A stretch of 64,000 bases of DNA from Yuukianura sp. NJ FZ-2021 (lineage: Eukaryota): assembly GCA_046563655.1 (NCBI GenBank), contig CM102286.1:13454001-13518000 (forward strand). Reading direction: 5' to 3'. Position numbers and translations under genes: made by a program. This document shows, one piece after another, positions 3,832 to 60,747 of the stretch. The first letter of the stretch is position 1, and every line of letters begins with the position of its first letter. A model generated the notes under the pieces. The model did not search any database. It worked only from the letters and a program-made list of their open reading frames with translations, and had not been told where the DNA came from.

Positions 3832-8799
<4,968 letters not shown>

Positions 8800-28601: not shown

Positions 28602-30425
28602 TTAGTAGTTCAACTGCGTAAGAAGAACGTCCGCTTCGTCATCAGATTCGTCAAATCCTTCTCCAGAAACTACGCGTTGCTCTTGTTCTAAAAAAAATGA
28701 AAAAAAAAGTTTCAATTTCGAAAAAAAATGTAGCAGTAGAGTTGTTTGTGTGCTAAAAAACAGTAAAGCAAGGTTACCGTTTTGGCTTAGTCTTTGGGAA
28801 GATGGCGGGCGTATCTCGACACTTCCGTGAGTCATGCTGGAACTGCTGGACGAAGCAATTTCAAGAGCACTAAAATCCATTTGAGTTAAAATTTCGTCTC
28901 CTGACCATTCCTCTTCATCTTGCTCTTCTTTTAATCCAAAAGTAGAATTGTTTTGGGTGGGTTCCGGCTCCTCCTCTTCGTCCTCAGCAAACAGTCGCCT
29001 GCGACCATGAAAGCTATCTACGAAAGTTGAGCTGAAACTGTCAAACGATGTTGATGCCCTGTTGTTCCTTGGTGTCTCTGCCACACAGTCACTTGATCCT
29101 GGGGTCACGTCAGAATCAAAGTCTGACATCCTCGAGCGTTTTGGAGGCGTAACTTCTCCGTGAGCTTCGAGTTTGTTTGTCATCAATCTTTTCTTAATTC
29201 GGTCTGACAGGATGACCGGACTTGGAGAATACTCGGCTATGAAAGATCCATTTAAATCGCTTCCTGTATCTCCGTCAGGGTTTGGATGAGAAACACCCAA
29301 CTCCTCTCGTTCATCTGCGATAAACAGTATAGAATGAAATTGAAGTTAGAAACAGGACAAATTGATACATGACGGCAAATAACTTACGGTGTCGCTCGTT
29401 TTCTTTCTTACTCATTTGTTGCAGTGTAGCATTCATACGCTCCAATTCGACTTTTTTCTGGTGATTGTGTGCTTTAGATGCTTCCTTCCTTGGTGAAGTT
29501 TGATCATGTTCATCATAGGTGCGAAGGGATGATACGGTAGCAACAGGAGTCGGAGGCAATGGCGACACTATAATAATAAGTACAAATAGGTGGGTTCGAA
29601 TTCGAAGTAGTTTATCTAAAAAAAAAGTACTTACGATCTTCTACAGCGAATGGAGCCGGAGGTTTAAATGTGTCATAAACGAGTCCGGTTTCCCCATTAT
29701 CCGTAACTGGCTGGCGACATGCCTTTCGAATAACTGATGGGTCGATGTTGTTGGCTTTGCAATAAGTTGTAAAAGTCATGCCATCCAAAGACTTATCTGT
29801 TTCAATGTACAGTGGAATTAGGTAATAAATAATAATGTATAATTACAAATCCCAAAGCTATTTGTAATTTGTAGATCGAATGATTCTTAAAAACCTTACG
29901 TCCAGCCACTTCCCCATCGTTACAGTAATCCATTGCCCTTCCACTACTACCGTCTACAACATCAATGTCCGCATTTCTTGGTCGCTGGAGTGACTCAGGG
30001 CCAGTTGACCTTGAGGACGATGGTGGCAGCCGCTCATTCGTGGAAGCTGTAAAAAAAGTTATGCATTTTACTTCTAATTTCATTCAGAGCAACGCATTCC
30101 GCAAATCTAAAAAAAACTTACCAACTTGTGGCCCGGGTCCGGACTTAGTCGGAATTCGAGCCCTAGCCTTTCCAATATTTTTAGTGACCTTAGTTTGACT
30201 TCTATTATGAGTATTTTTAATTTTATCATCTGTAGGGTCTGGAATGACGAGGTTGCGGTTATAGTCTTGGTCTCCGCTAACGTTCCGGTTGCCGGGTAAA
30301 GACCGGGCGGGTCCCTGCCCCACTGGAGTGCTTGTTAGCGGCCTTGAACCAAGGTTAGGAGAAGACTGCACCTTCCTTTCGCCGCCTCCCACTGCCAATG
30401 GCTTGAAACGTTTAGGCCCAGGCAT
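28602..30425 (-). CDS. Uncharacterised, largely disordered S/T/P- and acid-rich protein (~6 exons)
   Basis: ORFs 30084-30425, 29802-30083, 29311-29568 and 28602-29300 plus an exon near 29636-29797 join in frame through GT-AG introns. No family recognised. Confidence 0.7.
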
Positions 30426-35073: not shown

Positions 35074-35697
35074 CAAAAACTTACCGAAATTTTATTTTTT
35101 GAATATTTTTTTAAATGAACAACGCAATAAATCTCTATACTATTTGTTTAGTTTGTTGTAACAACTACGTGTCAGTCGAATTCAATTTGAGTGCTAAGCA
35201 CTTGGATGTTGATAAAAGCTTAACAGTAGACCACTTGCATGACATCACAAACCTATAACTAAATTAGTCTCCTAATCTAATAAACTATTTTTATAATTTC
35301 AGTGAGTGAGCACTTTCCAGTGCTATTAGAATAACTTTGCATTTCGTGAGCGTCATGTTGTTGAACCAGAATTTTTTTCTGGTTTGCAGAATTACGAAAA
35401 AAAAAAGTCATGAAAGCTTCTGTTTGCAATTTCCAATTTCCCATTCCCCAGAAGTTAATCTCTGTCAAATCACACACAAAGGACACAAAATTTATTCTGC
35501 AACATTTGCGTCATGATCGATGTAAAGTACTTAATAGACGCAACCTTAGCCTCATCCGCAGTATAACTTTTGCCGGAAAAAGTTAAACTTAACATATTTT
35601 AACGAAAACCCACCTCAAAAATTAACCAACTCAACCAACATTAGCAAAATTTTGACTTTTAGCAAAGATTTGCCAAAACTTAATTTATCTTTAAACC

Positions 35698-36504
35698 ATG
35701 TTGTTGCTTATACCAGCGATTGTTTCAACTCTGCTGACTTTTAGTTCTGGACAAACCTACCTCAGAGGTGACACATCCAAGGGCACTTACGAGTTGATTG
35801 ACTCTGTCCTGGGTAAGGGGACTGTCGAAGATCCAGATTGTTCCCACGAGTCTTTTGGTCGTCACATTACTCAACAAGTGGATTCTATTTTAAAACGGGC
35901 AGTATTTCTATTTCACATTCATGTTCAACCGGACAACGATCGCTGCAACACGTTCGATCGTCAACGAAACGAAATCAAAACGTATGATCCCTCTCCAGAA
36001 GAGTTGAAAGGACGCCGTGGAGAAACCGTGTCATTCTCATGGAACTTCTGGCTTGACGCTGCCTTTCAACCATCCAAGGCCTTTACACATATTCATCAAA
36101 TCAAAGACGATGGTGGGGACATTGGCAGTCCAATCATGACAATTACTCCGAGATACAATTCCAATGGAAACAAACTGGAACTGATCCATGTCGATTCATC
36201 GGGGACGAAAACTGTTGTCAAGGTGACCGAGCTCAAGCCGTTTCTGGGCCAGTGGATTCATGTCAAGGAGTCACTGACTTATGAGACCAAAGGGAAGTAT
36301 TCCGTAGTCTTTTCGAATTTGCAAACTGGGAAGGTTTTATGGGAGTACAGTAATACTAACATAGATCTCTGGAGAACTGGCGCTACTTTTGTAAGGCCGA
36401 AATGGGGAATCTACAGAGGACTGGACGACTCCAGTAGATTGAGGGACGAAATCGTAAAATTTGATACGTTTTGTTTGGGAAAAGGAAGTAAAATTTGTAA
36501 TTAA
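35698..36504 (+). CDS. Intronless secreted bacterial-type polysaccharide-lyase-like protein (jelly-roll; heparin lyase I / Polysacc_lyase-like), copy 1
   Basis: 268-aa single-exon ORF with signal peptide; motifs DRQRNEIKTY, FTHIHQIK and RPKWGIYR resemble the RxE, QI(H/K) and KxGIY strands of jelly-roll lyases. Confidence 0.75.
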   Translation: MLLLIPAIVSTLLTFSSGQTYLRGDTSKGTYELIDSVLGKGTVEDPDCSHESFGRHITQQVDSILKRAVFLFHIHVQPDNDRCNTFDRQRNEIKTYDPSPEELKGRRGETVSFSWNFWLDAAFQPSKAFTHIHQIKDDGGDIGSPIMTITPRYNSNGNKLELIHVDSSGTKTVVKVTELKPFLGQWIHVKESLTYETKGKYSVVFSNLQTGKVLWEYSNTNIDLWRTGATFVRPKWGIYRGLDDSSRLRDEIVKFDTFCLGKGSKICN

Positions 36505-37312
36505 GTTCTTGTTTGTGAAAAGTTGAAATAAAACTCACATTCGACCTATAGAAATAAAATATTCAACGACCCTCCCAGTGTTTTTGTAATTTCAAAAGAA
36601 GCATTTTGAAAAAGAGAGCCACACACTGAATTTTTTAAAATTAAAAACGCAATAAACCTCTTTAGTTTACTGTGTAAGTGTAAGTGTCAAGTGGTTTCAG
36701 TTGAGTGTTTAACACTTGGAAGTTGATAAAAAGCTTAACATTACTATTGTTAACTACAGTGCTTAACAGTTGCATGACATCACATTAAACTTTGGGATTA
36801 AATTAAACTCGTAATCTAATTAAATATTTTCATAATTTGAGTGCACGCGTTCGCACTTACTAAAGAGTGGCATTGGAATAACTTTGTATTTTATAAAAAG
36901 AAACATAAATGATGACCTAAAAATTTGAAATTTCGAAGAATCAAAATGAGAGTGGAAAAGGAGTCATGCATGCGGAAGCGTAAACAACAAACTAACCACT
37001 TCCAGGAAATTTTCATATTTTGCAATTCGCAATTTCCCTAGAAGATAATCTCTTTGTCAAACCACAAAAAAGACACAAAATTAATTCTGCAGCATTTACC
37101 GCATGTTTAACCATATTAAACGCATGAAACTTTAGCGTCCTCAGCAGTATACAACTTGCACAGAAAAAAACTGCAATAAAACTTCGAAAGCTTAGTCGAA
37201 TTTAACAAAAGTTTTGCAACACCTAGCATAGGCTAAAGATTACCAAAAGCCAACTCAAGGAATTAAGCAAAACTTAAAAAATTTACACAAAACTAACTAA
37301 AAACCAGTAGTA

Positions 37313-38122
37313 ATGTTCTGTTTTGCTGTAACAATAATTGTGACAGCTCTGCTAACTTTTAGTTCTGGACAAACATACCTCAGAGCAGACACTTCCAAGG
37401 ACACTTACGAATTAATTGACTCTGTCCTGGGTAAAGGCACAGTTGAAGATCCAGATTGTTCACACAAAGCCTTTGGACGTCACATTACTCAACAAGTCGA
37501 TCCTATTTTAAACCGTGCTGTATTTCTATTTCACATTCATGTCAAACCGGACAACGATCGCTGTTCAAAATTTGATCGTCAGCGCAACGAAATCAAAACG
37601 TATGGTCCATCTTCAGAAAATTTGAAAGGTTACCGTGGAGAAACAGTGTCACTGTCATGGAACTTCTGGCTTGACGCTGACTTTCAACCATCCAAAGCAT
37701 TTTCACATATTCATCAAATCAAAGACTACGGTGGAAGCATTGGCAGTCCAATCATGTCATTCGGTCCAAGATTTAAAGCCAAAGGCAACATACTGGAACT
37801 GATTCATGTCGACTCCAAGGGGAAGAAAACTGTTGTCAAGGTGACCGAGCTCAAACCGTTTCTGGGTCATTGGATCCATGTCAAGGAGTCATTGACCTAT
37901 GACACCAAAGGGAAGTATTCCGTAGTTTTTTCGAATTTGCAAACTACGAAAGTCTTGTTGGAGTACAGAAATACAAACATTGACCTCTGGAGAACTGGCG
38001 CTACTTTTGTAAGGCCGAAGTGGGGAATTTACAGAGGACTGAACGATTCAAGTAGATTGAGAGATGAAATTGTAAAATTCGATACTTTTTGTTTGGGAAA
38101 GGGAAGTAAAATTTGTAATTAA
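37313..38122 (+). CDS. Intronless secreted bacterial-type polysaccharide-lyase-like protein, copy 2
   Basis: 269-aa single-exon paralog of 35698-36504 with the same motifs and the identical C-terminus FDTFCLGKGSKICN. Confidence 0.75.
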   Translation: MFCFAVTIIVTALLTFSSGQTYLRADTSKDTYELIDSVLGKGTVEDPDCSHKAFGRHITQQVDPILNRAVFLFHIHVKPDNDRCSKFDRQRNEIKTYGPSSENLKGYRGETVSLSWNFWLDADFQPSKAFSHIHQIKDYGGSIGSPIMSFGPRFKAKGNILELIHVDSKGKKTVVKVTELKPFLGHWIHVKESLTYDTKGKYSVVFSNLQTTKVLLEYRNTNIDLWRTGATFVRPKWGIYRGLNDSSRLRDEIVKFDTFCLGKGSKICN

Positions 38123-40261: not shown

Positions 40262-42193
40262 TTAAATTCCTAAAACTGCACCAGGGAGACTTTGTTCCAG
40301 TTGTCCATTTTTTACAACCTGCACTCCGTTGACCCAGACAGACACAATGCCCTTAGGGTATGACACTGGATCGTCGTACGTCGCAGTGTCAGTGACCACT
40401 GGAGTGAACATGACCAGGTCAGCAGCCATTCCAACCTTAATCACCCCTCGATCTGCCAGTCCAAATCGTTCAGCAGCCATTGACGTACACTTCTGCACGG
40501 CTTGTTCAATCGTCATCCACGGTGCAGTCGTATAAGTTAGTGCCATTTTGCCAAGAACTCTCGGGAAAGTGCCGTACATGCGCGGATGTGGTTTTCCCCC
40601 TGCGCGCGGAATGCTGTCACTCCCGACCATTTGAAACGACGACTGGAACACCATTTGCTGATCTTCAATACTTTGTTGAAACATGATCACATTTGACCTC
40701 CCTTCGTCCTTGAGCACCACGGTCATGAAAAAATCAAATTCAGTTTCGTTGCCTAGCAACTGCTGTCCTTCTGGAATCGTCAGTCCTTGGATCGGAAGTA
40801 AATCTGGATGAACAACAGAGTTGATTAGGATATTGTCCCACCCAATCAGAGCCACTTTCGATTCCCACCCAGGTTCAGAGCCACATTCAGTCAAGTATTT
40901 CAGTTCTTCGTAATATTCTGGATCAGTTTCAAGACGTTCCACAAATGCATCGAATCCTCCGGCCATGGCCGATGGCGGCAAAATTTGAAGAATTGTGGAT
41001 GAACCAGCCAGGTATGGATACATGTCCACTTTAATGTCCACTCCTTGGTCAATCGCTGCTTGAATTTTGGCAATCGCTTGAGGCATAATTTCTCCCCAAT
41101 AAGGAACTCCGGCTACTTGCAAGTGAGATAAAAGTCCACGAGCACCACTCATGCGCAGAACTTCAACGAATTCGTCAATACTCTGCAGCAAGTTGCCTTC
41201 ATAACTCCGGATGTGTGCAGAAATGACTCGGTTGTACTTGGCAACTGACGACGCAAGCGCAACCAGTTCGTCCTGCCCAGCATAAGCACTCGGTGGATAC
41301 ACAAGGCCTAAAGACAGTCCAAGCGCCCCTTGTTCCAGTTGCTGTTCAAGTATTTCCACCATTTTCAAAATTTCGGTTTCCGTTGCCAGGCGATTGTCTG
41401 GTCCAACAACGGCTAATCTGATTGGTCCATGGCCCACAAGTGAGCCAACATTAGGTCCAAGGCCGTTTCCCGCCAGAAATGATTTGTAATCGGTGAAATT
41501 TTCAAAAAACGAAGTTGGCTCAATTTCACCTAAAAGCAAGGTTGTTTAAATCGGAATTTTGTTTTCATTAACAGGTTGTGCCATAACTCCTTGTTTTAAT
41601 AAAATTGTTTGTTTTGATTTCTTGTCTGAAAAGGTTGACCTCGCGTGTTAAACAAACGGGATATTGGTGTAAATTGTAAAATTTGTTTTTTTCGAAACTT
41701 TTTGAAAAAAAATAAGGAGTGATGGTATAACCTGTTAGCGTATTTGTATAAATATGGTTATAGCAACCTTGCCTAAAAGTGTGGCTAAGTGCTCCTGAAT
41801 TTCTGGAAGGCTTCCGTTGGGGTAATTGGAGAATCCGCAATTTCCGGTGACCACGGTAGTTACTCCCTGCATAACTTTAGCAGGACTTTGGTGATTGATG
41901 ATGACGTCGACGTCGTCATGCGTGTGAGTATCGATGAATCCCGGAGCAAGGTAAGCTCCATGGGCATCTACAACTTGAGTTATATTTTGACACTCTGAAG
42001 ATGTCAACTGTTGACCTACGTATGTGATTTGACCTGCCTGGACACACACTGACCCTAAAAAAGACGGTGAACCTGTTCCGTCAACAATTTTGGCGTTTTG
42101 GATAACAAAATCTCCGGAGACAGGCTGGTTCATGGTGAAGATGTTAAGAAAGAAGAAAAGGATAGAGAAAAATACTGATCTTTTCCAGGCCAT
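40262..42193 (-). CDS. N-acyl-D-amino-acid deacylase (D-aminoacylase, amidohydrolase family), bacterial type; 2 exons (42193-41773, 41529-40262; 562 aa)
   Basis: IVDGTG; APGFIDTHTHDD; GVTTVVTGNCGFS; SAHIRS; LSHLQ; GSDS; KPHPRMYGTFPRVLG; RFGLADRGVIKVGMAADLV; VWVNG. Hydrophobic N-terminal extension. Confidence 0.9.
41529..41779. mobile_element. Non-autonomous DNA transposon (MITE, 8-bp TSD; hAT- or P-like) forming the intron of the D-aminoacylase gene
   Basis: TSD CCTAAAAG at 41529-41536 and 41772-41779; TIRs CAAGGTTG (41537-41544) and CAACCTTG (41764-41771); subterminal inverted repeat 41569-41597 vs 41709-41737 (25/29 identical). Confidence 0.85.
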
Positions 42194-42737
42194 TGTTTAC
42201 CTTGAACTTTTTTGTTTGAACAGCTTGATTAATGTTGTTTGAAAAAGTAATCGCAGAAAAACACTAGTATAACAGTGAGATTTAAGTTAGTTTTAGATTA
42301 AAGTTATCATGGAAGTGTAGCATAGTTTATGTACTTGCAGTACTGTCAACTATTGATTATCTCCTGTTGTCACAAATTTCTAATCAATTGTTAAAATTTC
42401 TTCAAAATTGAACTTCAATTCAATTACAATTCGGTCATGATTTTCCAAAAAAAAAATTTATAATAATTTCCACATTTAAGTTTTACTTTGACCAAGAGCA
42501 AAAGCTGATTTTTCTAAAATTCGAAAGTTTTTCGAACGAAATGCCACGTTATGCCATAAAGTTTTAAAATTTTGTTAAACTTTGCCCTATTTGCTAAAAT
42601 TGAGTATCAATTTTACCCACTTTTGGCGTTTTGTCGAAATAATTTTGTAACGTTTCAATAAATTCTTAAAATTGTATTTTTAATTGTTTGAGTCAATTTT
42701 TTGTTAATACAAATGAGTCATTGTAACTTTAGTTTTT

Positions 42738-45733: not shown

Positions 45734-46876
45734 ATGAAGTCTTTAGTATCATGGTTGCTGACGTTTTTGCTATTAGTCACTTTGAGTTCCTCCGATCCAA
45801 AAGGCAAGACATACATTCTTATGGAATATATGTTAAGATGTTGAGTAATTTGTTCATTAGCCCGATATTTTTGTCTGAATTCCAGATAAAACTACATCAC
45901 CTCCGAAGTCTAAACAGCAAAATGAACGAAACAACGTCCTGTTACCGCCAATTGGACCTCCAAATATACAATCCAGTTCTGGCACTCCGCTATTATCTAG
46001 TCCAAAAACACTGCCAAGTTCAGAGTACCAGAGTACGATTGGTAGGAAACCGATGCTACCCTCAGAATATTCTTACCGAACCGTACGTCCATTCTCCTTT
46101 TGTATTTATTATTCTACGGGTAACAATAACAACATGCTGCTGTTTCGTTTCACAGATGGGGAAGATTGACGACAGAAACTACTGCGATATGGTCCAACCT
46201 GACGTTGAGTGTTCGGAACTGAGCGGAGACTGCTTGGATTGTAACTTCGACGTTGTCAAAAATACGTGTATTTACGGTAAAAACATTACTGTGGCATGCA
46301 CCCCGAAAGAAATGGTCATTTGCCAGGTAATCATTCCAACATTCTGAAGTTTTATTCACTTTTCTGGACACTTTCTGACTTATTTTTTCTTCTGTAGGGT
46401 GGACGCAAGTTTGACAAGGAAATTGTTTGCCAGTACTGTTACCAAACCCCTATTTGGCAACAAAGATGTAACGGAATGGCCATGTGCAACTCTATTGGTG
46501 CACCTCGATACCATTTTAGGTAAGCACAGTTCAAATTTTTCCTGTCAGTTAGCCGTTCGTGTGTGACTACAAACAATGTCCTTATAAAAACAGAGGAAAT
46601 TGCACCGTGTTACCAGAGGTCCTGTGTCTTGGAAGCCGCAGATTTCACCGAATGATACCCTGCAACTGGAAGAATGGCTACAAGTGGTCGACAACAATGC
46701 TGCTCAGTATCACACTGGGAGGATTCGGAGCTGATCGGTTTTACTTGGGAAGATGGCAAGAAGGAATTGGGAAGCTGTTCAGCTTTGGTGGATTGGGGCT
46801 ATGGACGTTTGTGGATATTATACTTATTGCTGTGAGGTACTTGGGCCCAGCCGATGGTTCAATCTACGTTGACTAG
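45734..46876 (+). CDS. amx: TM2 domain-containing protein 3 / almondex
   Basis: Signal peptide MKSLVSWLLTFLLLVTLSSS; Cys-rich ectodomain CQYCYQT, NCTVLPEVLCLGSRRF..CNW; TM2 domain GYKWSTTMLLSITLGGFGADRFYLG..GIGKLFSFGGLGLWT..YLGPADGSIY. Confidence 0.93.
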
Positions 46877-47158
46877 ATTCCTAAGTTCAAGTCCATGAAA
46901 GATCTCATTTAATTCGATTAACCCTAAATTGCTTACATTTAAATTTTAGTGTCTTTGTAAAGCTTTCATTGTTGCTTGCTCCATAACTCAACTTGTAAAT
47001 CGAATTTATAAGCGGTTTTTAAAAATCGCTTCCAGTTTTGTCAAGACTCCATTTTGAGAAAGCAATGTGTATGTTATTGGGCTTGGTGGTAAGTAAAGAT
47101 GTAATGAATTTGAATTTTGTGTAATTTGAAGCTAATTGGCACATGACTTTTTGTTTGT

Positions 47159-48850
47159 CTATAAGGGCTCTTGATCTTCTTCGACTTCTTCTTCCTCTTC
47201 CCCTCCTTCGCCGAGTTCATACAGAAGTTCAACAAGCTGGTCGTCTACAGGAGCTACAGCGGGCTCGGGCGGTCCGTCAACTGCCGGCTCAGCTAACGGC
47301 TCATATTCGACTGGAAGTTCTTCAGCTACTGGCTCAGGTTCGGCTGGAGGTTCTTCAACCACCGGCTCTGGTTCCGGTTCGGCTGGAACTTCTTCAACTA
47401 CCGGCTCAGGTTCAGGTACCGCTGGTGGTTCTTCAACAACGGGCTCCGGCTCTGGTTCGGCTGGAACTTCTTCAACTACAGGCTCAGGTTCGGGTGGAGG
47501 TTCTTCAACTACTGGCTCAGGTTCGGGTGGAGGTTCTTCAACAACGGGCTCAGGCTCTGGTTCGTCTGGAGGTTCTTCAACTACCGGCTCAGGTTCGGCT
47601 GGAACTTCCTCTGCCGCCTCAGGTTCGGCTGGAATTTCTTCAACCGCCAATGGTTCGTCGACGATTGCCTCTGGTTCAAAGAATTCTGCCCTGAGGGGCT
47701 CCTGCCCGTCATCGTCCAAAGTAGTTTCAAGAACAACTTCGTCCTCTTTGTCGGGACCTTCAGCGATCCATGCAAGCTCCTTTGGCATTTCTTCAGCGAT
47801 GACCTCAGTTTCAACCGGCTCTTCGGCCAGAACATCTTCCGGCTCAGCTTCAAGTGGCTCTTCGGCCAAAGCCTCCGCCTCAGCTTCGCCCAATGCAAAT
47901 TCTTCTACTGGTGGTTCCTCGTCCATGGCGGCTTCTTCAATCGGTTTTTCTTCCTCATTTTCACCCAACTCCGCAGCAGTTGTGTCAACCATTTCCTTTT
48001 TCTTGAGAAAATCTTCGTCAGTGATTGGCTCTGTCCCGGTATCCATAATTGTCGTAGTGGCAGCATCCGCAAACGTTTTGCAATTCGTTGTTAACGCTGG
48101 AGCACTGCATGACCGAGCTGCGACTTTGCTTTCCACGCACAATTCTGGACAAGTATTCTCACTTTCAGTCAAAAAGTTTAGAAATGCTGGGAGACTCATG
48201 ATCCGAAACATGCTGGAAGGTTGTGGCGGAGGTTCATCGGGACATCGCAGACACTGGTTGTCATACTCCGTTTCCGTGAGGTATTTACCAATAGTTGGAA
48301 TGGCGGTGGCCATTCTCTCCAAAAGTCGATCGAAGAATGCCACGATATAGAGATCATCTGTTTCTCCTGGAACGCAGGCGCCCGGGATTTCTGGAGCTGG
48401 TTCTGGTACAGGAACTGGTTCTGGTTCTGGTTCTAGTTCCATTTCAACCATTGGTTCTGGTTCTGGCTCCGGTTCCACGACTGGTTCTGGTTCGGGCTCC
48501 GGTTCAGGTTCAACTTCTGGTTCCGGTTCTGGTTCAACCTCTGGTTCAGGTTCGGGTTCGGCAACTTCATGAATGGAGTCATCTGAATTGTCATGAATAA
48601 GAATGCTCTCTACATCATGAGGTTGAAGGTTCCGAATGTCATTTACTTTAAATTGGCCAGTCATCGCCTTTGATTCTAACAAAATAGTGGACACGTTGGT
48701 CACTACCATCGTTAACTACCACCATACCACTATACTGGCCAGTATACTGCCAGCAGTTTTAAGAGAATTCGAAAATATTTGGAAGTAGTACTTACGACTT
48801 TCTAAAACTACTTCGTCCAGCTCCTCTTTCTGGTCCGTCGGATCGTCCAT
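47159..48850 (-). CDS. Orphan Glu/Pro-repeat acidic protein with a central Cys-containing domain (2 exons: 48850-48796, 48675-47159)
   Basis: Exon 1 [18 protein letters not shown] ends at a gtaagt donor and joins in frame at a ttttgttag acceptor to the 516-codon ORF. Confidence 0.8.
47290..47650 (-). repeat. Coding tandem repeat (EE(P/V)P(A/P)EPEP(EP)VV-like units, ~36-42 nt)
   Basis: About 8-9 imperfect copies in the translation; a second EPEPEV array lies at ~48400-48565. Confidence 0.85.
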
Positions 48851-49022
48851 TTTTTGTACTTTTGAATTTTAGTTTGAAAAAGCGCGGCGCAGGACTCAAT
48901 TTAGTCTTCTACGTTGAAAATTTCTGAAATTCTACGTAAGCGCCTGCGTACGTCTCAAGTTTTCTGCCGTTTTTTTAAAAATAATCTAAACAAATTGAAA
49001 AGTTTGCTAACTGAATCTATGG

Positions 49023-49036
49023 GTTGCTATGGCAAC
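49023..49036. promoter_or_regulatory. Near-palindromic RFX X-box
   Basis: GTTGCTATGGCAAC, ~175 bp upstream of the ATG at 48850 (minus strand). Confidence 0.75.
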
Positions 49037-49203
49037 AATCTTCGGTCAAGAGAGCGCTAGCGATTTGAACTTATCTATCCAATGCCCAGCTCCAGAATTA
49101 CGATTTGTAATACGACTTTTATTTCAACTTATACAATTTTGAACACAAACGAAAAATTTTGCAACTCCATTACTTCAGACTAGTCGCAAATTCGTAAAAT
49201 TGT

Positions 49204-49890
49204 TTAGACAATTACGCATCCGGCGCAGCAGCCTTTCTTTGGCTCCTCTGGTGGCATTTCTGCAACAATGTTTGGTTTCTTTGGTTTCTTTTTCTTCGGA
49301 GTTGCTGGAATACTTTTGGAACTGAAGCCAACCGGAATGTAGACCGGAGCCGATGCCGAAATTTCTACTTCAGGAACAACTTCAATTTCGGGTTCACCAG
49401 CTCCCGTGTCAACGATTTTCTCACATTCTCCAGCCTTACATGTGTCACATACGTTCTGTCCTTCTGTTAAGAAGTCTTCCAAGTCGTGTGTTAGAAACTC
49501 AAAAATGGTGCCATGGATACACTCCGTTCGTGGATCAGCATCGGTCAATGGCCCAACAAGTGTTGAGAGTCCGGTGAGTCCTGCCAGGTCATCTACAATG
49601 TCTGAGAAGATGTCAATGATGTCAGCTGGACTGCGACAGTAGTGTGGGCCTGGGGCAGTACCGACTGAAGGCGGTACTTGGACCGGTACGGTATTTTGAT
49701 TGACAGTTTGTGTCGTTGAGGTTGGTTTTAAGCTGAGACCACTTGGCTCTGGATTGGGCAAGTCTTCAACACTCTCCGGAGCGGGCACGTCTTCAACACT
49801 CTCCGGAGCGTCGAGACCATCGTTTAGGTTGATCATGACGTCTGAACCGATAGCGGGTGCGACGCCCATGCGCATTGTTGATTCGTCCAT
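49204..49890 (-). CDS. Orphan acidic protein with polybasic tract and C-terminal CaaX; paralogous domain to the neighbouring gene
   Basis: 228-aa single coding exon ending PKKKKPKKP...KKGCCAGCVIV*; AATAAA on the minus strand near 49118-49123. Confidence 0.8.
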   Translation of the reverse strand: MDESTMRMGVAPAIGSDVMINLNDGLDAPESVEDVPAPESVEDLPNPEPSGLSLKPTSTTQTVNQNTVPVQVPPSVGTAPGPHYCRSPADIIDIFSDIVDDLAGLTGLSTLVGPLTDADPRTECIHGTIFEFLTHDLEDFLTEGQNVCDTCKAGECEKIVDTGAGEPEIEVVPEVEISASAPVYIPVGFSSKSIPATPKKKKPKKPNIVAEMPPEEPKKGCCAGCVIV

Positions 49891-50668
49891 GTTTCAAGTG
49901 GAGCCTTTGCTTTTGGGCCAAAGTCTAAAGAACAAACTTAAGTTCAAATTCATTTTTTAAACTAATCATAAGGTACGATTACCTAAGTTTTCAGTAGTTC
50001 CAGACGCTCCAGTTGATCAGTATTGAGAAATATCGCAATTTTAGGCAGCAATTCAGCAATCCGCAGCCGCCATTTTGTTTTTCCATTGTTTAAAAACAAT
50101 TTGCTTTGGGACGATTTTGTTGGCATGGTTATTGTCTGGAAATTTTCATATAATAATTCATTGTTGCTGTAATAATCTACAGGTTTTGCTTGACAATGTA
50201 AAGTTGACATGGTCAACGAAAAGGTCAAAGGTCAAATTCTGTTTTTGACATTATTTGCCCATATATGCGTTCCAACGAGTCAAGGTGATGATGTGGACCT
50301 GTCACTCAAATTCAAATTCAGCTTATAACTTTTTAGTACAAGTTAATTTCGGTTTTTCAATTGATTAAGATTAATTCATTCATCAATCATTGGAATTCCA
50401 TTTGATTTAGAATTCGCTGATTCTGCACTGAGTCCATGATTTCTATGTGCTGAAAACAGCCATTTCGTAATCATTCAAGCGAAAAACAAGTTGGAAACTT
50501 TCTGGGCCAGGGAATTTAAGGTAACTTTTCACATTGTAATTTTTATTGAAAGTTCTAATTTATTTGAGAATTAACGTTTATGTGTTATAGTTTCTTCTGT
50601 TCCTTATACAGGAAGGACGACACCTACAAAGTATAACTGCTGAGCCGTGACAAGCGATATTTTTCAAT

Positions 50669-52315
50669 ATGCCAGATTCAACAAATTCAGAATCCTCCAA
50701 TTCGGGTGTTGGTGTCATCGACACGTCACCATTTCTATCGGACTGGGGATTCACCCTTAAAGAACTTTATAGCCTCGCACTCGTATTTTTTAAAGGTGAA
50801 ATTAACGTTAAACTAACATCAGATGAAGAGTCTTGTCATGTCGTTATGCTTTTTCAGATAAACAAGGGACGAAGGCAATGCACTTTTCTTACGAAGAGAG
50901 AATGAAATTAGTTGGACTGACATGTCAAGTAGCCAATGGTCCATTTGATCCTCTGACAGCTCCTCCATTAGGAGTTCTCGATGTAATCGGCAAGGATCGA
51001 AGGTGATTCACAAAATTGGATGATTTTATATTGATTATTCCTGTTCATTGAATCACAACTTTGTGTAACGTTGACAATAGGGTTGCGTGGCAGGCACAAG
51101 GAAACAAATCAAAATCGGATTCAATGTTCGAGTTTATAACAACGTTGGACAAGCAATCTCCACTTTTTAAACCATTTGTTGAAGCCCATAAGCGAGATGC
51201 AGAAGAGAGACAGCGGCGATTGAAAGAGCTTCAGTTGGTAGAAAATGAAAAGGAAGAGGGCTATCAAATTGCCAAGGAAAATGAACGTCAGGCGGAGTTT
51301 GAGAAAGGACTTCAAGACGAACAGAAACGTCAAGTTCAAGATGCACTGAACCAACAAACTTATGAACAATTTAAGACTTATGCTGAGCAACAATATCCAA
51401 GAAATCCAGAACAGGTAAGCCCTTCAGTCCCTCAAAGTCTACTAAAGGACTACGCAGCCCAATGGTTTTAAATCTCTCACTTCCAGCAAGCCGTTTTGAT
51501 TCGCCAATTACAAGATCAACATTACGAACAATACGTTCGGCAAATCTATCAACAACAACTGTTTCCTGAAACGGAAGATAATGGACAAGAAGAAGGCGCC
51601 GGGGAACCAGCCCAGAAGGCACAGGAATCACAAGTTGTAGAGACACAAGAATCAAAACAGGCACAAGATCTGATAAATGTTGCTGCTGAAGACCAAGAGG
51701 AAGCTAAAGATGACAGTAATAGTAGTGAACATGAATCTTCCATCGCTGCAGCTTCGATGTGGACCAGGAAAGATATTAAAGAATTCAAGGATTCCGTCCG
51801 AGCTGAGGGTGGAGAGGCCATTATCAAAGTTGGTCAAGGCGAATCCGTTACAGTAAGATTCAAAAATTACAAACTTAGCTCACTTACGTTAATGTTGAAT
51901 TCTTGTTGTTTTTATTACTAAGGTTCGAGTGCCGACACATGAAGATGGAACTTGCTTATTCTGGGAATTTGCTACCGACTCATACGACATTGGATTTGGC
52001 TTATTTTTTGAATGGACAAATGCCGATGAGCCTGTTTCGGTCCAAGTGACAGAAGAAGTGTCATCAGACGAAGAGGACGACCCAGAACTGGCTGCAATTC
52101 AACAGGATATTGAGAGAGGCAGGGAACTGCTTCCGAAAGACTCCAAACCGAATACAGATGTCATCATCCCTGTCTACCGTCGTGATGCCCACCAAGAAGT
52201 TTATGTCGGTAGTCACTTGTTTCCTGGCAAAGGTGTCTACTTGTTGAAATTCGACAATAGCTACTCTTTCTGGAGGTCAAAAACGCTTTACTACAGAGTT
52301 TACTATACCAAGTAA
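50669..52315 (+). CDS. ACBD3: Golgi resident protein GCP60 (ACBD + Q-rich + GOLD)
   Basis: [113 protein letters not shown]. Confidence 0.96.
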
Positions 52316-58000: not shown

Positions 58001-58242
58001 CAAAAAGTTATTCGAGAGAAGAAAAAGTAGCAATTTGATTGCAAAGTGAAAAAAAAGTTGCGTGAAAGTGAATTTTTTTTGTGAAGAAAATTTCTTGGAT
58101 TTCGGCGTCCAATTTCCTCTCTTTTTTTCCAATTCTTCTCAAGTTTATTTTGAAGTACTTTTTTCAATTTTTTTGATTGAAAACCTGAACCCGGTGTTTC
58201 AATGACCTCACGTGACCTTAGTGAAAGTGTTTTTCTACAAAT

Positions 58243-60002
58243 ATGAAATTGGAAGATCTTTTGTACTTTGTTATGAGTCAGAAGAACGAAGAAGGTGACA
58301 GTCCTCACAGTTACTTGATGCTCAATGGTTCTCAAATTTCCAGTTCAACTCAGTTGATGGTTGAAGAAAAAGACAAGAAGGAATGGACTCACGATGGTTC
58401 TGGTTCTGCCGACCTTGATGAAGGATTCTGCATTTATAATTTTAGTATCAAGTCCATTCATAACAAAAGTAATTGCAACATTAACAATAATCAACTTCTG
58501 TTTCAAGTGGCAGATCCCAATACCAACACTACCGTTTTACTTCAAATTCCACCATTACAGAATAACATGCGTCGTGTCAAATCTACACCAAATTTACTAC
58601 AACTTCCATCAGTGCAAAGATCTAGAAAAAAATCGGATGATTCAGCGCTAGGAAGCGGTGAAGAATCGGAGCTAAGTGACAAACTAAGCGATGTGTCTTT
58701 TACAGGTGAGAGATTTACTAATGTATTCAAAATTTTGAAAATTTACTACTCAAAATTTTGAGTATTTGGAACGTTTTGATTTTTCGAAAAAAACGGAGAG
58801 CTGAAATTGCGTTTTATACTTTACGAAGTATACACAAGTTTGTTAGAACAAAATACTTTATAAAATTGCTTATGTGTTGGTAATTGCAATATTAAACCCA
58901 ATTGCCAATTTGAAGAAAGAGTTCACAATTTCCGCAAATTGAAAGTGAAGGAGTAGCGCAAGGTCATCCAGTTTGCAAAAAAAAATCATTTTTTTGCTAA
59001 AAATGTTCAACACTTTTGTTTTGTTTTTTGAAAGTTTTTTTAGTTTCAAGATGCTGGTCAAATTTCTGTTAAAAATCGTTTTTTAATCATAATTCGAAAT
59101 TTCTGCTGTTGCTTTTTAAATGTGAGAAAAGCTGAATTTTGTATTACACACTGACAAGGCCATAATCGCTGCTGTTTTGCTCAAACCATAAAAGTGTAGT
59201 GAACTTGTTCTTGGGGTTATCAAAATTTTGTGGAAATTCTAACGATAGTTGAAGCTGGAGAAACTTTTTTTTTAAACACAGTTGGAGGTTGGAGGTCAAC
59301 GTTCAAGCGCTGAAAATTGAGATTTATTGAGGTCAGGAGATCATGTTGGATCTTTTTCATTTTTATTTCACTATGGTTTACGCTTTTTAAAATTAACCGT
59401 TGCAAACGCCGTATGTAAGTAGCGAACGGAAATTGGAGTGCACAGGCCGAAATTTGTGCACTTCCGGTCAAACCTATTCGTCACCTCTGGACCATGTGAA
59501 GTTCATCTGCCAAGGCAGAATGAAAATCGGTCCAGTGGTTCCACAGGTATGTTGTCCAGCAGACAGACAGACAGACAGACTCTGGGAAAAACATAAAGTA
59601 GCGAACCACTTTCGCTAACTTAAAAACTGATTTTGATTTTGGTTTTTAGACTATGGCGGTACAAAGGTGTCTGATTCCTACGTCCACGAGCCGTTACGCG
59701 TTCCAGCCGAATTCCAGCGCCAGCATCAAGAGCGAGAAGTGCTCGTGCCGACATTGACTGCTGGAGGTCACCACAACTTGAGGCCTCCTTCAGTTGTAGT
59801 GAGTGACCATGACCTCTGTCATGCAGGGGAACCGACATTCCTGACCTTAGAAGAAATCGAGGCCGAGTTCGCCTACAGTTCGCGCATGAACAGTCGACGT
59901 ATTTCTGACACCAGTACATGCAGTTCATTCTCTGATATTGAATACTCATTGGCACCCCCACAAGAAGAAGAACAAGAGCAGGAAGACGAAACGACAAACA
60001 AG
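58243..60002 (+). CDS. 5' exons (58243-58705, 59650-60002) of a gene continuing beyond the window; Ser-rich N-terminus, tentatively reminiscent of arthropod IP3 3-kinase long isoforms
   Basis: Phase-1 GT-AG junction joins the two ORFs in frame; motifs RRVKSTPNL, PSVVVSDH, TLEEIE, RRISDTSTCSS; donor at 60003. No catalytic domain in the window, so identity is low confidence. Confidence 0.55.
59395..59625 (+). mobile_element. Helitron/Helentron-associated (DINE-1/HINE-like) non-autonomous element in an intron
   Basis: (GACA)5 microsatellite followed by a 3' stem-loop TAGCGAA-ccact-TTCGCTA; AAGTAGCGAAC occurs near both ends. Confidence 0.55.
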
Positions 60003-60747
60003 GTTAGAACTATTAAAAAAATCAAAGTTTTCGAAAAAAAAAATCAAAAATTGCATCTTGCTTGGTCTCGTAGCTTGCTTCTCTAAATGCTTTTCCGAAA
60101 TATTGGAACGTAAAACTAAATTTGTATATTACAAATTGTAATTCTAGACAACTTTTGTCACGTGCTTTGAAATAACCGCAAAGTTGAATTGCTACGATAT
60201 TGGATATCCGTATTTCTCTGAAAATTTTATACGCAAATGAAAACCTAGATTTTCAAAAAACGCCGCCGCTTCAAATTCCATTCAACGAAACGAGTGTATT
60301 ATCTTTGGCACTTTTTGGAATTTTACGGTACCAGAGTTCTCAAAAATTCAGCAAGCGTATCCGTTCCGCTTAAAACAGCGTCACGTTTCCAAAAGTTCAG
60401 TTATCAATTGACACACAAAGATTGCATCACTTTTCATTTGAAAAAGTATTTTTAATGTTTCTCAACAATTTAGCTCATTTGCCCAAAAATTTCAATGTAC
60501 CAACAAAACTTAAGTAAAGACAGTTTCATGTCCCGTTTAAAGTCTTTAACAGTATCACAGTTAGTTTCGCCTCGGGCTATCTTAAAACCTCAGTCTGGAG
60601 AAGGTGACCGCTGATTGGTTGTCAGCAGATGTGGCTCACCGCAGATAATCCAAGAAAACGCAGAAACAAAAAATAATAATCAGAGCTCATAGAAATATTT
60701 TAATTGAGCTATTACGTATTTTAATTTAAGCTGAGTTCTATCGTAAC

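Follow-up and report, generated by a model that had tools for sequence, protein, structure and literature searches.

Two neighbouring genes on the minus strand of the Yuukianura sp. NJ FZ-2021 genome, designated here A and B, were examined in a 64-kb window (assembly GCA_046563655.1, contig CM102286.1, forward-strand positions 13,454,001 to 13,518,000; "the window" denotes this whole stretch of 64,000 nucleotides, to which all coordinates refer). Their open reading frames (ORFs), A at 47159–48715 (518 codons) and B at 49204–49893 (229 codons), are those of two separate, closely packed protein-coding genes. Gene B establishes a family, small and so far undescribed, whose members combine a new five-Cys domain of ~72 amino acids with a predicted lipid tail; the product of gene A is a soluble protein, hyper-acidic and carrying Pro/Glu repeats. 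An initial annotation of the locus had described A and B as tandem orphan genes that share an unrecognised Cys-containing domain of ~70 residues through an old duplication. The domain holds good in the B family, where its five Cys are invariant; its presence in A by descent is borderline, and whether A originated as a tandem copy of B that has since diverged strongly is, judging from the sequences, an evenly balanced question.

The family of B was delimited by a profile search of 1,835,955,588 representative proteins, in which exactly two relatives were found at E ≤ 0.001: P0003 (226 amino acids, E 1.4e-11) and P0004 (212 amino acids, E 3.9e-11). Neither has a name, and each is the sole member of its cluster, the sources being environmental or read-archive assemblies. 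A second, word-indexed search with the profile of the B-family domain, covering proteins of 148–2000 amino acids, again returned P0003 and P0004 only, so that B is no longer an orphan as the initial annotation had it, a label that still fits A as far as it was searched. The three proteins have a common layout, comprising a variable N-terminal arm, an acidic domain of 72–73 amino acids, a variable linker, a polybasic run and an end of the form CC-x(1-2)-C-a-a-X. The acidic Pro-rich arms proposed for both genes are recognisable in B in a mild form only, the description being fully apt for A (see below).

The conserved domain of B, delimited by alignment with P0003 and P0004, runs from Cys85 to Cys156 (72 amino acids; 49423–49638, minus strand) and follows the pattern CRS..SDIVDD..TDADP..C..FL..D.E..LTEG.N.CD..C..C. 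Over the domain, P0003 and P0004 are 60% and 56% identical to B, respectively, and 36 of the 84 alignment columns are invariant across the three proteins, the five Cys among them. Each protein contains exactly eight Cys, of which the domain accounts for five and the tail for three. A hidden Markov model (HMM) for which only P0003 and P0004 were used matched B at 3.7e-36, and B carries all of the family motifs (SDIVDD, TDADP and LTEG-N-CD) together with the five invariant Cys. We are therefore highly confident that B is a genuine member of a conserved family.

The absence of a Pfam family, already noted in the initial annotation, was borne out for B, P0003 and P0004, all three of which lack a match at E ≤ 10, and at the same threshold no solved-structure sequence matched the B domain, either with two profiles or with single sequences. 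A look-alike search of the ESM Atlas with B gave no usable match, the B-family alignment had no match in the bacterial and archaeal genomes scanned, and a third copy of the domain was absent from the 1206 ORFs of the window. Literature searches with the B-family motif strings returned no relevant paper and one unrelated match. The word-indexed searches with whole B and with the A domain region returned nothing, the window's own proteins included; the lineage is thus probably poorly covered in annotated proteomes, and absence elsewhere is weak evidence. A single-sequence AlphaFold2 model of B places helices at residues 88–103 and 120–152, with low confidence (mean predicted local distance difference test score 40.4), a level insufficient for a search by fold. 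An internal duplication of the domain, with helix 1 matching helix 2, was considered and ruled out (hhalign P 0.29; 893–1007 of 2000 shuffles reach the score).

The second hallmark of the family is its C-terminal tail. In B this comprises the polybasic stretch PKKKKPKKP followed by EEPKKGCCAGCVIV (49207–49299, minus strand) and ends with the CaaX box CVIV (49207–49218, minus strand). The tail residues invariant in the three family members are P198, K199, K201, K202, K205, P217, K218, C221, C222, C225 and I227. The extreme C-termini read CCAGCVIV in B and CCRCTIS and CCASCIIM in P0003 and P0004, and the tetrapeptides CVIV, CTIS and CIIM all meet the CaaX pattern of a Cys at position −4, an aliphatic pair and a permissive last residue. 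A yeast Ydj1-based farnesyltransferase screen covered all 8000 CXXX sequences, and its authors take an HM score of 3 as the cutoff that tracks prenylation; in it the three motifs score 3.86 (CVIV), 4.45 (CTIS) and 4.29 (CIIM), all above the cutoff (PMC10320760, File S4). No paper turned up whose main text brings together CVIV, CaaX and farnesyltransferase.

B has no transmembrane-like stretch (best 19-residue Kyte–Doolittle mean, 1.2), which leaves the tail as its only membrane signal. From the sequence, and by analogy with known lipidated tails, B is likely to be lipid-anchored. Set against this are the origin of the HM scores, which come from yeast and may not hold in this animal, the identity of the last residue, Val being less common in the X position of a CaaX box, and the standing of lipidation and membrane location themselves, both of which are predictions. 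If B is processed according to established CaaX biology, its last Cys would be prenylated, the -aaX residues removed and the new end methylated; palmitate would be attached to the two upstream Cys, and acidic lipids would be bound by the basic run. B would thus reside on the cytosolic face of a membrane, where the acidic Cys domain would serve as the exposed binding module. If B is as it appears, the peripheral membrane proteins anchored by CaaX, palmitoyl and polybasic signals gain a cargo domain that had not been described. Known so far from three sequences, none of them named, the family is lineage-restricted and uncharacterised and of modest general interest, and it offers a compact target for the role of a small acidic Cys domain at the inner membrane face.

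The five invariant Cys, presumably in a reducing compartment, raise the possibility that the B domain may depend on a metal, as the initial annotation had suggested. Against metal binding, the Cys spacing varies within the family, being C-x2-C-x4-C in B and C-x3-C-x5-C in P0003 and P0004, and no zinc-finger Pfam model matches any of the three proteins. Zinc knuckles do not usually show such variable spacing. In addition, the other two family members do not conserve His126 of B.

The coding sequence of B (49204–49890, minus strand) is a single exon encoding 228 amino acids and ending in a TAA stop at 49204–49206. Upstream of the ATG at 49890, the frame is shut by an in-frame TGA only two codons away (49894–49896), and the coding sequence is therefore complete in one exon. 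Its codon-usage log-ratio, +0.31 per codon, is the best of the six frames. The sequence also suggests a candidate intron of 58 nucleotides in the 5′ untranslated region (49925–49982, minus strand; GTAATC...TTCTTTAG) and a candidate polyadenylation signal, AATAAA, ~80 nucleotides past the stop (49118–49123, minus strand). Within the N-terminal arm, Tandem Repeats Finder detected a tandem duplication of 27 nucleotides (49756–49810, minus strand; period 27, 2.0 copies, 96% matches), which encodes APESVEDVP and APESVEDLP.

Gene A has a very different composition. Its main exon, identified as an ORF and by its composition, is exon 2 (47159–48702, minus strand), with 513 full codons followed by a TAG stop (47159–47161). 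The predicted protein is hyper-acidic, with an isoelectric point of 4.05 and 158 Asp and Glu, 18 Lys and Arg and 91 Pro among the 513 residues. Upstream lies a candidate exon 1 of 18 codons plus one base (48796–48850, minus strand), with its ATG at 48850 and a GTAAGT donor, and between the two a candidate intron of 93 nucleotides (48703–48795, minus strand; GTAAGT...GATGGTAG); both were derived from the sequence. The candidate splice is in phase 1, joining C and TG as a Leu codon and running on in the frame of ORF A at 48702.

Two repeat arrays flank a non-repetitive core in A. Towards the N-terminus lies an (EP)n repeat (48389–48559, minus strand; Tandem Repeats Finder periods 6 and 24), and towards the C-terminus a series of repeats of 11–13 amino acids (47289–47657, minus strand; periods 33/39/72). 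The core extends from Cys114 to Cys212 in the numbering of the stop-to-stop ORF (48080–48376, minus strand) and holds all seven Cys of the protein; the part of it that aligns to B is 48137–48346. A ends in ...EEDQEPL, with neither a polybasic/CaaX tail nor a hydrophobic segment, so that the proposed contrast of one membrane-anchored with one soluble member agrees with the sequences, B having a polybasic run and a CC-x-CaaX end, with no transmembrane segment.

The A frame has the best codon log-ratio in three of four segments (0.46–0.52). In the domain segment the two strands tie, A scoring 0.082 and one antisense frame 0.096. Among the seven 13-amino-acid repeat units, differences fall at 38, 31 and 81 of 273 sites each for codon positions 1, 2 and 3, and 72 synonymous codon pairs stand against 45 non-synonymous ones. 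ORF A is the longest frame in the region and is stop-free across ~900 nucleotides of non-repetitive sequence. On the strength of its codon usage, its third-position variation and the phase-consistent splice sites, A was taken as a real coding gene. Open frames are also present on the plus strand opposite A, at 47175–48350 (391 amino acids), 47297–48094 (265 amino acids) and 47125–47694 (189 amino acids); these antisense frames, Ser/Gly/Thr-rich and others, are shadows of the stop-poor repeats of A.

Searches with A were negative throughout. No A-like protein was found by the word-indexed search, the billion-protein profile search or the ESM Atlas, and no A-family profile could therefore be built; the Cys segment had no match among solved-structure sequences at E ≤ 10. 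When bacterial and archaeal genomes were scanned with the A domain, one candidate locus (L001) came up; it was rejected as a chance match of 26 residues seeded on an exact 8-residue word in an unrelated bacterial ORF of 620 amino acids.

The relationship between A and B was assessed by several alignment methods. The peptides quoted in the initial annotation are all present in the two proteins, including LT(E/D)x6C and FLTExxNxC followed by a further C, and the alignment drawn there by eye was recovered independently by BLASTP, Smith–Waterman and hhalign. It is the top high-scoring segment pair of A and B in BLASTP (23.5 bits, 15 identities in 68 positions, E 0.007) and the Smith–Waterman optimum, scoring 44 against 24.8 ± 4.3 in shuffled sequences. 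When domain was compared with domain, within limits chosen by hand after the fact, 7 and 8 of 2000 shuffles reached this score. Comparison of the A domain with whole B gave 53 and 44 of 2000 shuffles reaching the score, and that of whole A with the B domain gave 8 and 7 of 500. End-to-end alignment of the domain, from its first to its fifth Cys, with whole A was equalled by 22 of 2000 shuffles for B and 25 of 2000 for P0004.

Profile methods gave a similar picture. With hhalign, the three-member B profile aligned to the A domain or to whole A over 59–61 columns, with P 0.0054–0.0062, and the corresponding HMM scored the A domain at 5.4 bits, a value reached by 6 of 3000 shuffles. The window was screened as 1206 ORFs with the profile HMMs or as 312 ORFs of at least 60 amino acids with hhalign. 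In the hhalign screen A was the best non-self match, scoring 24.2, with the next ORF at 17.3 over only 6 columns; the match to A spans 59–67 profile columns, those of the other top-ranked ORFs 3–16. Overall, the similarity of A and B is borderline, with P between ~0.004 and 0.06 depending on the test, and the alignment outscores shuffled sequences to that degree only, from 7–8 of 2000 shuffles with the hand-picked domains up to 121 of 2000 in the end-to-end alignment of P0003 with whole A.

We consider it an even call, on sequence grounds, that A arose as a tandem copy of B and then diverged strongly. The two genes are direct neighbours with the same orientation, each of the five family Cys is matched in A in colinear order and at similar spacing, and the C-x3-C spacing of A (CPELC) is that of P0003 and P0004 (CDFRC). 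In addition, the domains of B, P0003 and P0004 all pick the same site within the 513 residues of A when aligned end to end. A number of results count against the old tandem duplication proposed in the initial annotation. The hhalign probability for A is only 6–7%, the P0003 end-to-end alignment just mentioned is the weakest of the three, and adding two relatives to the profile brought no gain in significance over the single pair. With the three-member HMM A ranked fourth of the 1206 window ORFs, at E 3.3, below two short and probably non-coding ORFs; it was not listed at E ≤ 10 by the HMM of P0003 and P0004 only, and chance would put ~1.6 of the 311 non-self ORFs of the hhalign screen at P 0.005. 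A retains 9 of 29 family-invariant positions and 11 of 27 variable ones, so that identities are not enriched at invariant columns (Fisher p 0.58), and the motifs SDIVDD, TDADP and CRS are missing. The lack of any A-like protein in the databases belongs on the same side. These are the observations expected if A and B are unrelated neighbours, brought together by a chance match of acidic, amphipathic, helix-prone segments that bear Cys, with the help of one FLTE..N.C word; Cys–Cys matches and this word supply much of the score of 44, and B alone would then define the family. We hold this second explanation to be a serious contender that falls somewhat short of an even chance. It leaves to coincidence that, of all the ORFs in the window, the best non-self match to the profile is the immediate same-strand neighbour, over a far longer alignment than the other top-ranked ORFs, and that three family members converge on one site with the five Cys in order.

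Two further explanations bear on one gene each. ORF A could be non-coding, held open by low-complexity repeats of the GAA/CCA type, or the Ser/Gly/Thr-rich antisense frame (47175–48350, plus strand) could be the real one; the length of the three plus-strand frames, the lack of a homologue of A and the domain segment, where the A frame does no better than the antisense, are in keeping with this. We nevertheless judge it very unlikely, given the length of A, its uninterrupted passage through non-repetitive sequence, its lead in the other codon-usage segments, the concentration of repeat differences at third codon positions and the phase-consistent upstream ATG exon with its GTAAGT donor. For B, the alternative is that its domain is a divergent member of a described family, such as a paralemmin-type, zinc-finger or kinase-anchoring helix module, missed by sequence methods. 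Helix 1 shows a paired-hydrophobic pattern like that of amphipathic docking helices, for example A-kinase anchoring helices, and the search depth was limited, the B-family profile being shallow at three sequences and an effective number of sequences (Neff) of ~1.5. The tail of B is also closely like the paralemmin lipid anchor as described in PMC3405040. On the other side, Pfam, solved structures and the Atlas all failed to match B, its variable Cys spacing would be uncommon in zinc knuckles, and the paralemmin authors found the family among invertebrates only as a lancelet fragment (PMC3405040). A hidden membership of this kind appears improbable to us.

Returning to the reading of A as a diverged copy of B, it would require A to have lost the lipid tail and most of the family-specific residues and to have gained repeats. 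A would then be the soluble, repeat-expanded member of the pair and would illustrate how a tandem duplicate can shed its anchor and family residues while swelling into acidic repeats.

In the surrounding window, the A/B pair is flanked by a TM2-domain gene (46553–46876, plus strand) and an ACBD3-like gene (50827–52315, plus strand). The latter consists of an ACBP piece (50827–51006) followed by GOLD_2 (51899–52315) and is divergent from B. The coding starts of B and the ACBD3-like gene lie less than ~1 kb apart (49890–50830), which makes a shared bidirectional promoter possible. Genes for p66, Ski and CFAP91 are found elsewhere in the window, in which there were no Rfam matches and no tRNAs by tRNA scan. 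The genes around the pair are of animal type.

Other genes in the window were noted in passing. Two tandem, intronless-looking paralogues (35695–36504 and 37301–38122, both plus strand) are 85% identical (225/264), each with a hydrophobic N-terminus, and match the Pfam family Polysacc_lyase at 30.9 and 25.7 bits (cutoff 29.9). They have no credible solved-structure relative, one weak match (E 0.0061) being to a leucine-rich-repeat protein. They may represent a microbial-type enzyme that was acquired horizontally and then duplicated. At 40262–42196 (minus strand) lies an amidohydrolase gene resembling D-aminoacylase/N-acyl-D-amino-acid deacylase, whose best solved-structure matches are the bacterial 3gip and 1m7j (E 1e-47 to 1e-46). 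It is present as two ORFs with an apparent GT...AG intron between them (~41546–41770), and an intron in a bacterial-type gene suggests that it is a resident of the animal genome and not contamination. Further long ORFs with no Pfam match are located at 7155–8309 (plus), 28602–29345 (minus), 58225–58761 (plus) and 59637–60086 (plus), and one of these four has abundant repeats of Gln, Arg and Glu.

Several known systems resemble parts of this pair. The (EP)n dipeptide repeats of A recall the procyclic acidic repetitive protein, Trypan_PARP (PF05887). Membership of A in that family was rejected, the match (31.6 bits against a curated cutoff of 100) covering 63 repeat residues only and being compositional, in a different type of organism and architecture. 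The hypervariable tails of Ras and Rho proteins carry a basic run and/or palmitoylated Cys followed by a CaaX box, and B has its basic run, upstream Cys and CaaX box in the same order. Unlike Ras and Rho proteins, B has no GTPase domain, its cargo being the acidic Cys domain of 72 amino acids. A further parallel is offered by the HIPPs, small proteins which combine Cys-based metal binding by an HMA domain with a C-terminal isoprenylation motif and are known from vascular plants only. The analogy would hold for B only if its domain binds metal, and B differs in having no HMA or other Pfam match at E ≤ 10.

The paralemmins differ from the B family in that no Pfam model, that of paralemmin included, matches B, P0003 or P0004 at E ≤ 10, and in the long polybasic run of B; they are not known to have a five-Cys domain such as that of B. 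The likeness lies in the tail: as described in PMC3405040, paralemmins have a C-terminal cluster made up of a prenylated last Cys and two palmitoylated Cys before it, and B likewise has three C-terminal Cys, the CaaX Cys among them, within its last eight residues. According to the same source, the paralemmins (PALM1–3) are acidic, largely disordered proteins on the cytosolic face of the plasma membrane, reported only from vertebrates plus the lancelet fragment, and palmdelphin is a mainly soluble form with no CaaX end (PMC3405040). A pairing of anchored and soluble forms of this kind recalls B, predicted to be anchored, and A, soluble and possibly its paralogue. One scenario, which we offer as decidedly speculative and rather improbable in its full extent, is that anchored B recruits its soluble tandem paralogue A to the membrane through a shared, possibly metal-bridged, five-Cys helical domain. 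The two would then make up a new family, from a poorly sampled branch of the invertebrates, that evolved independently as the equivalent of the vertebrate paralemmin/palmdelphin pair.

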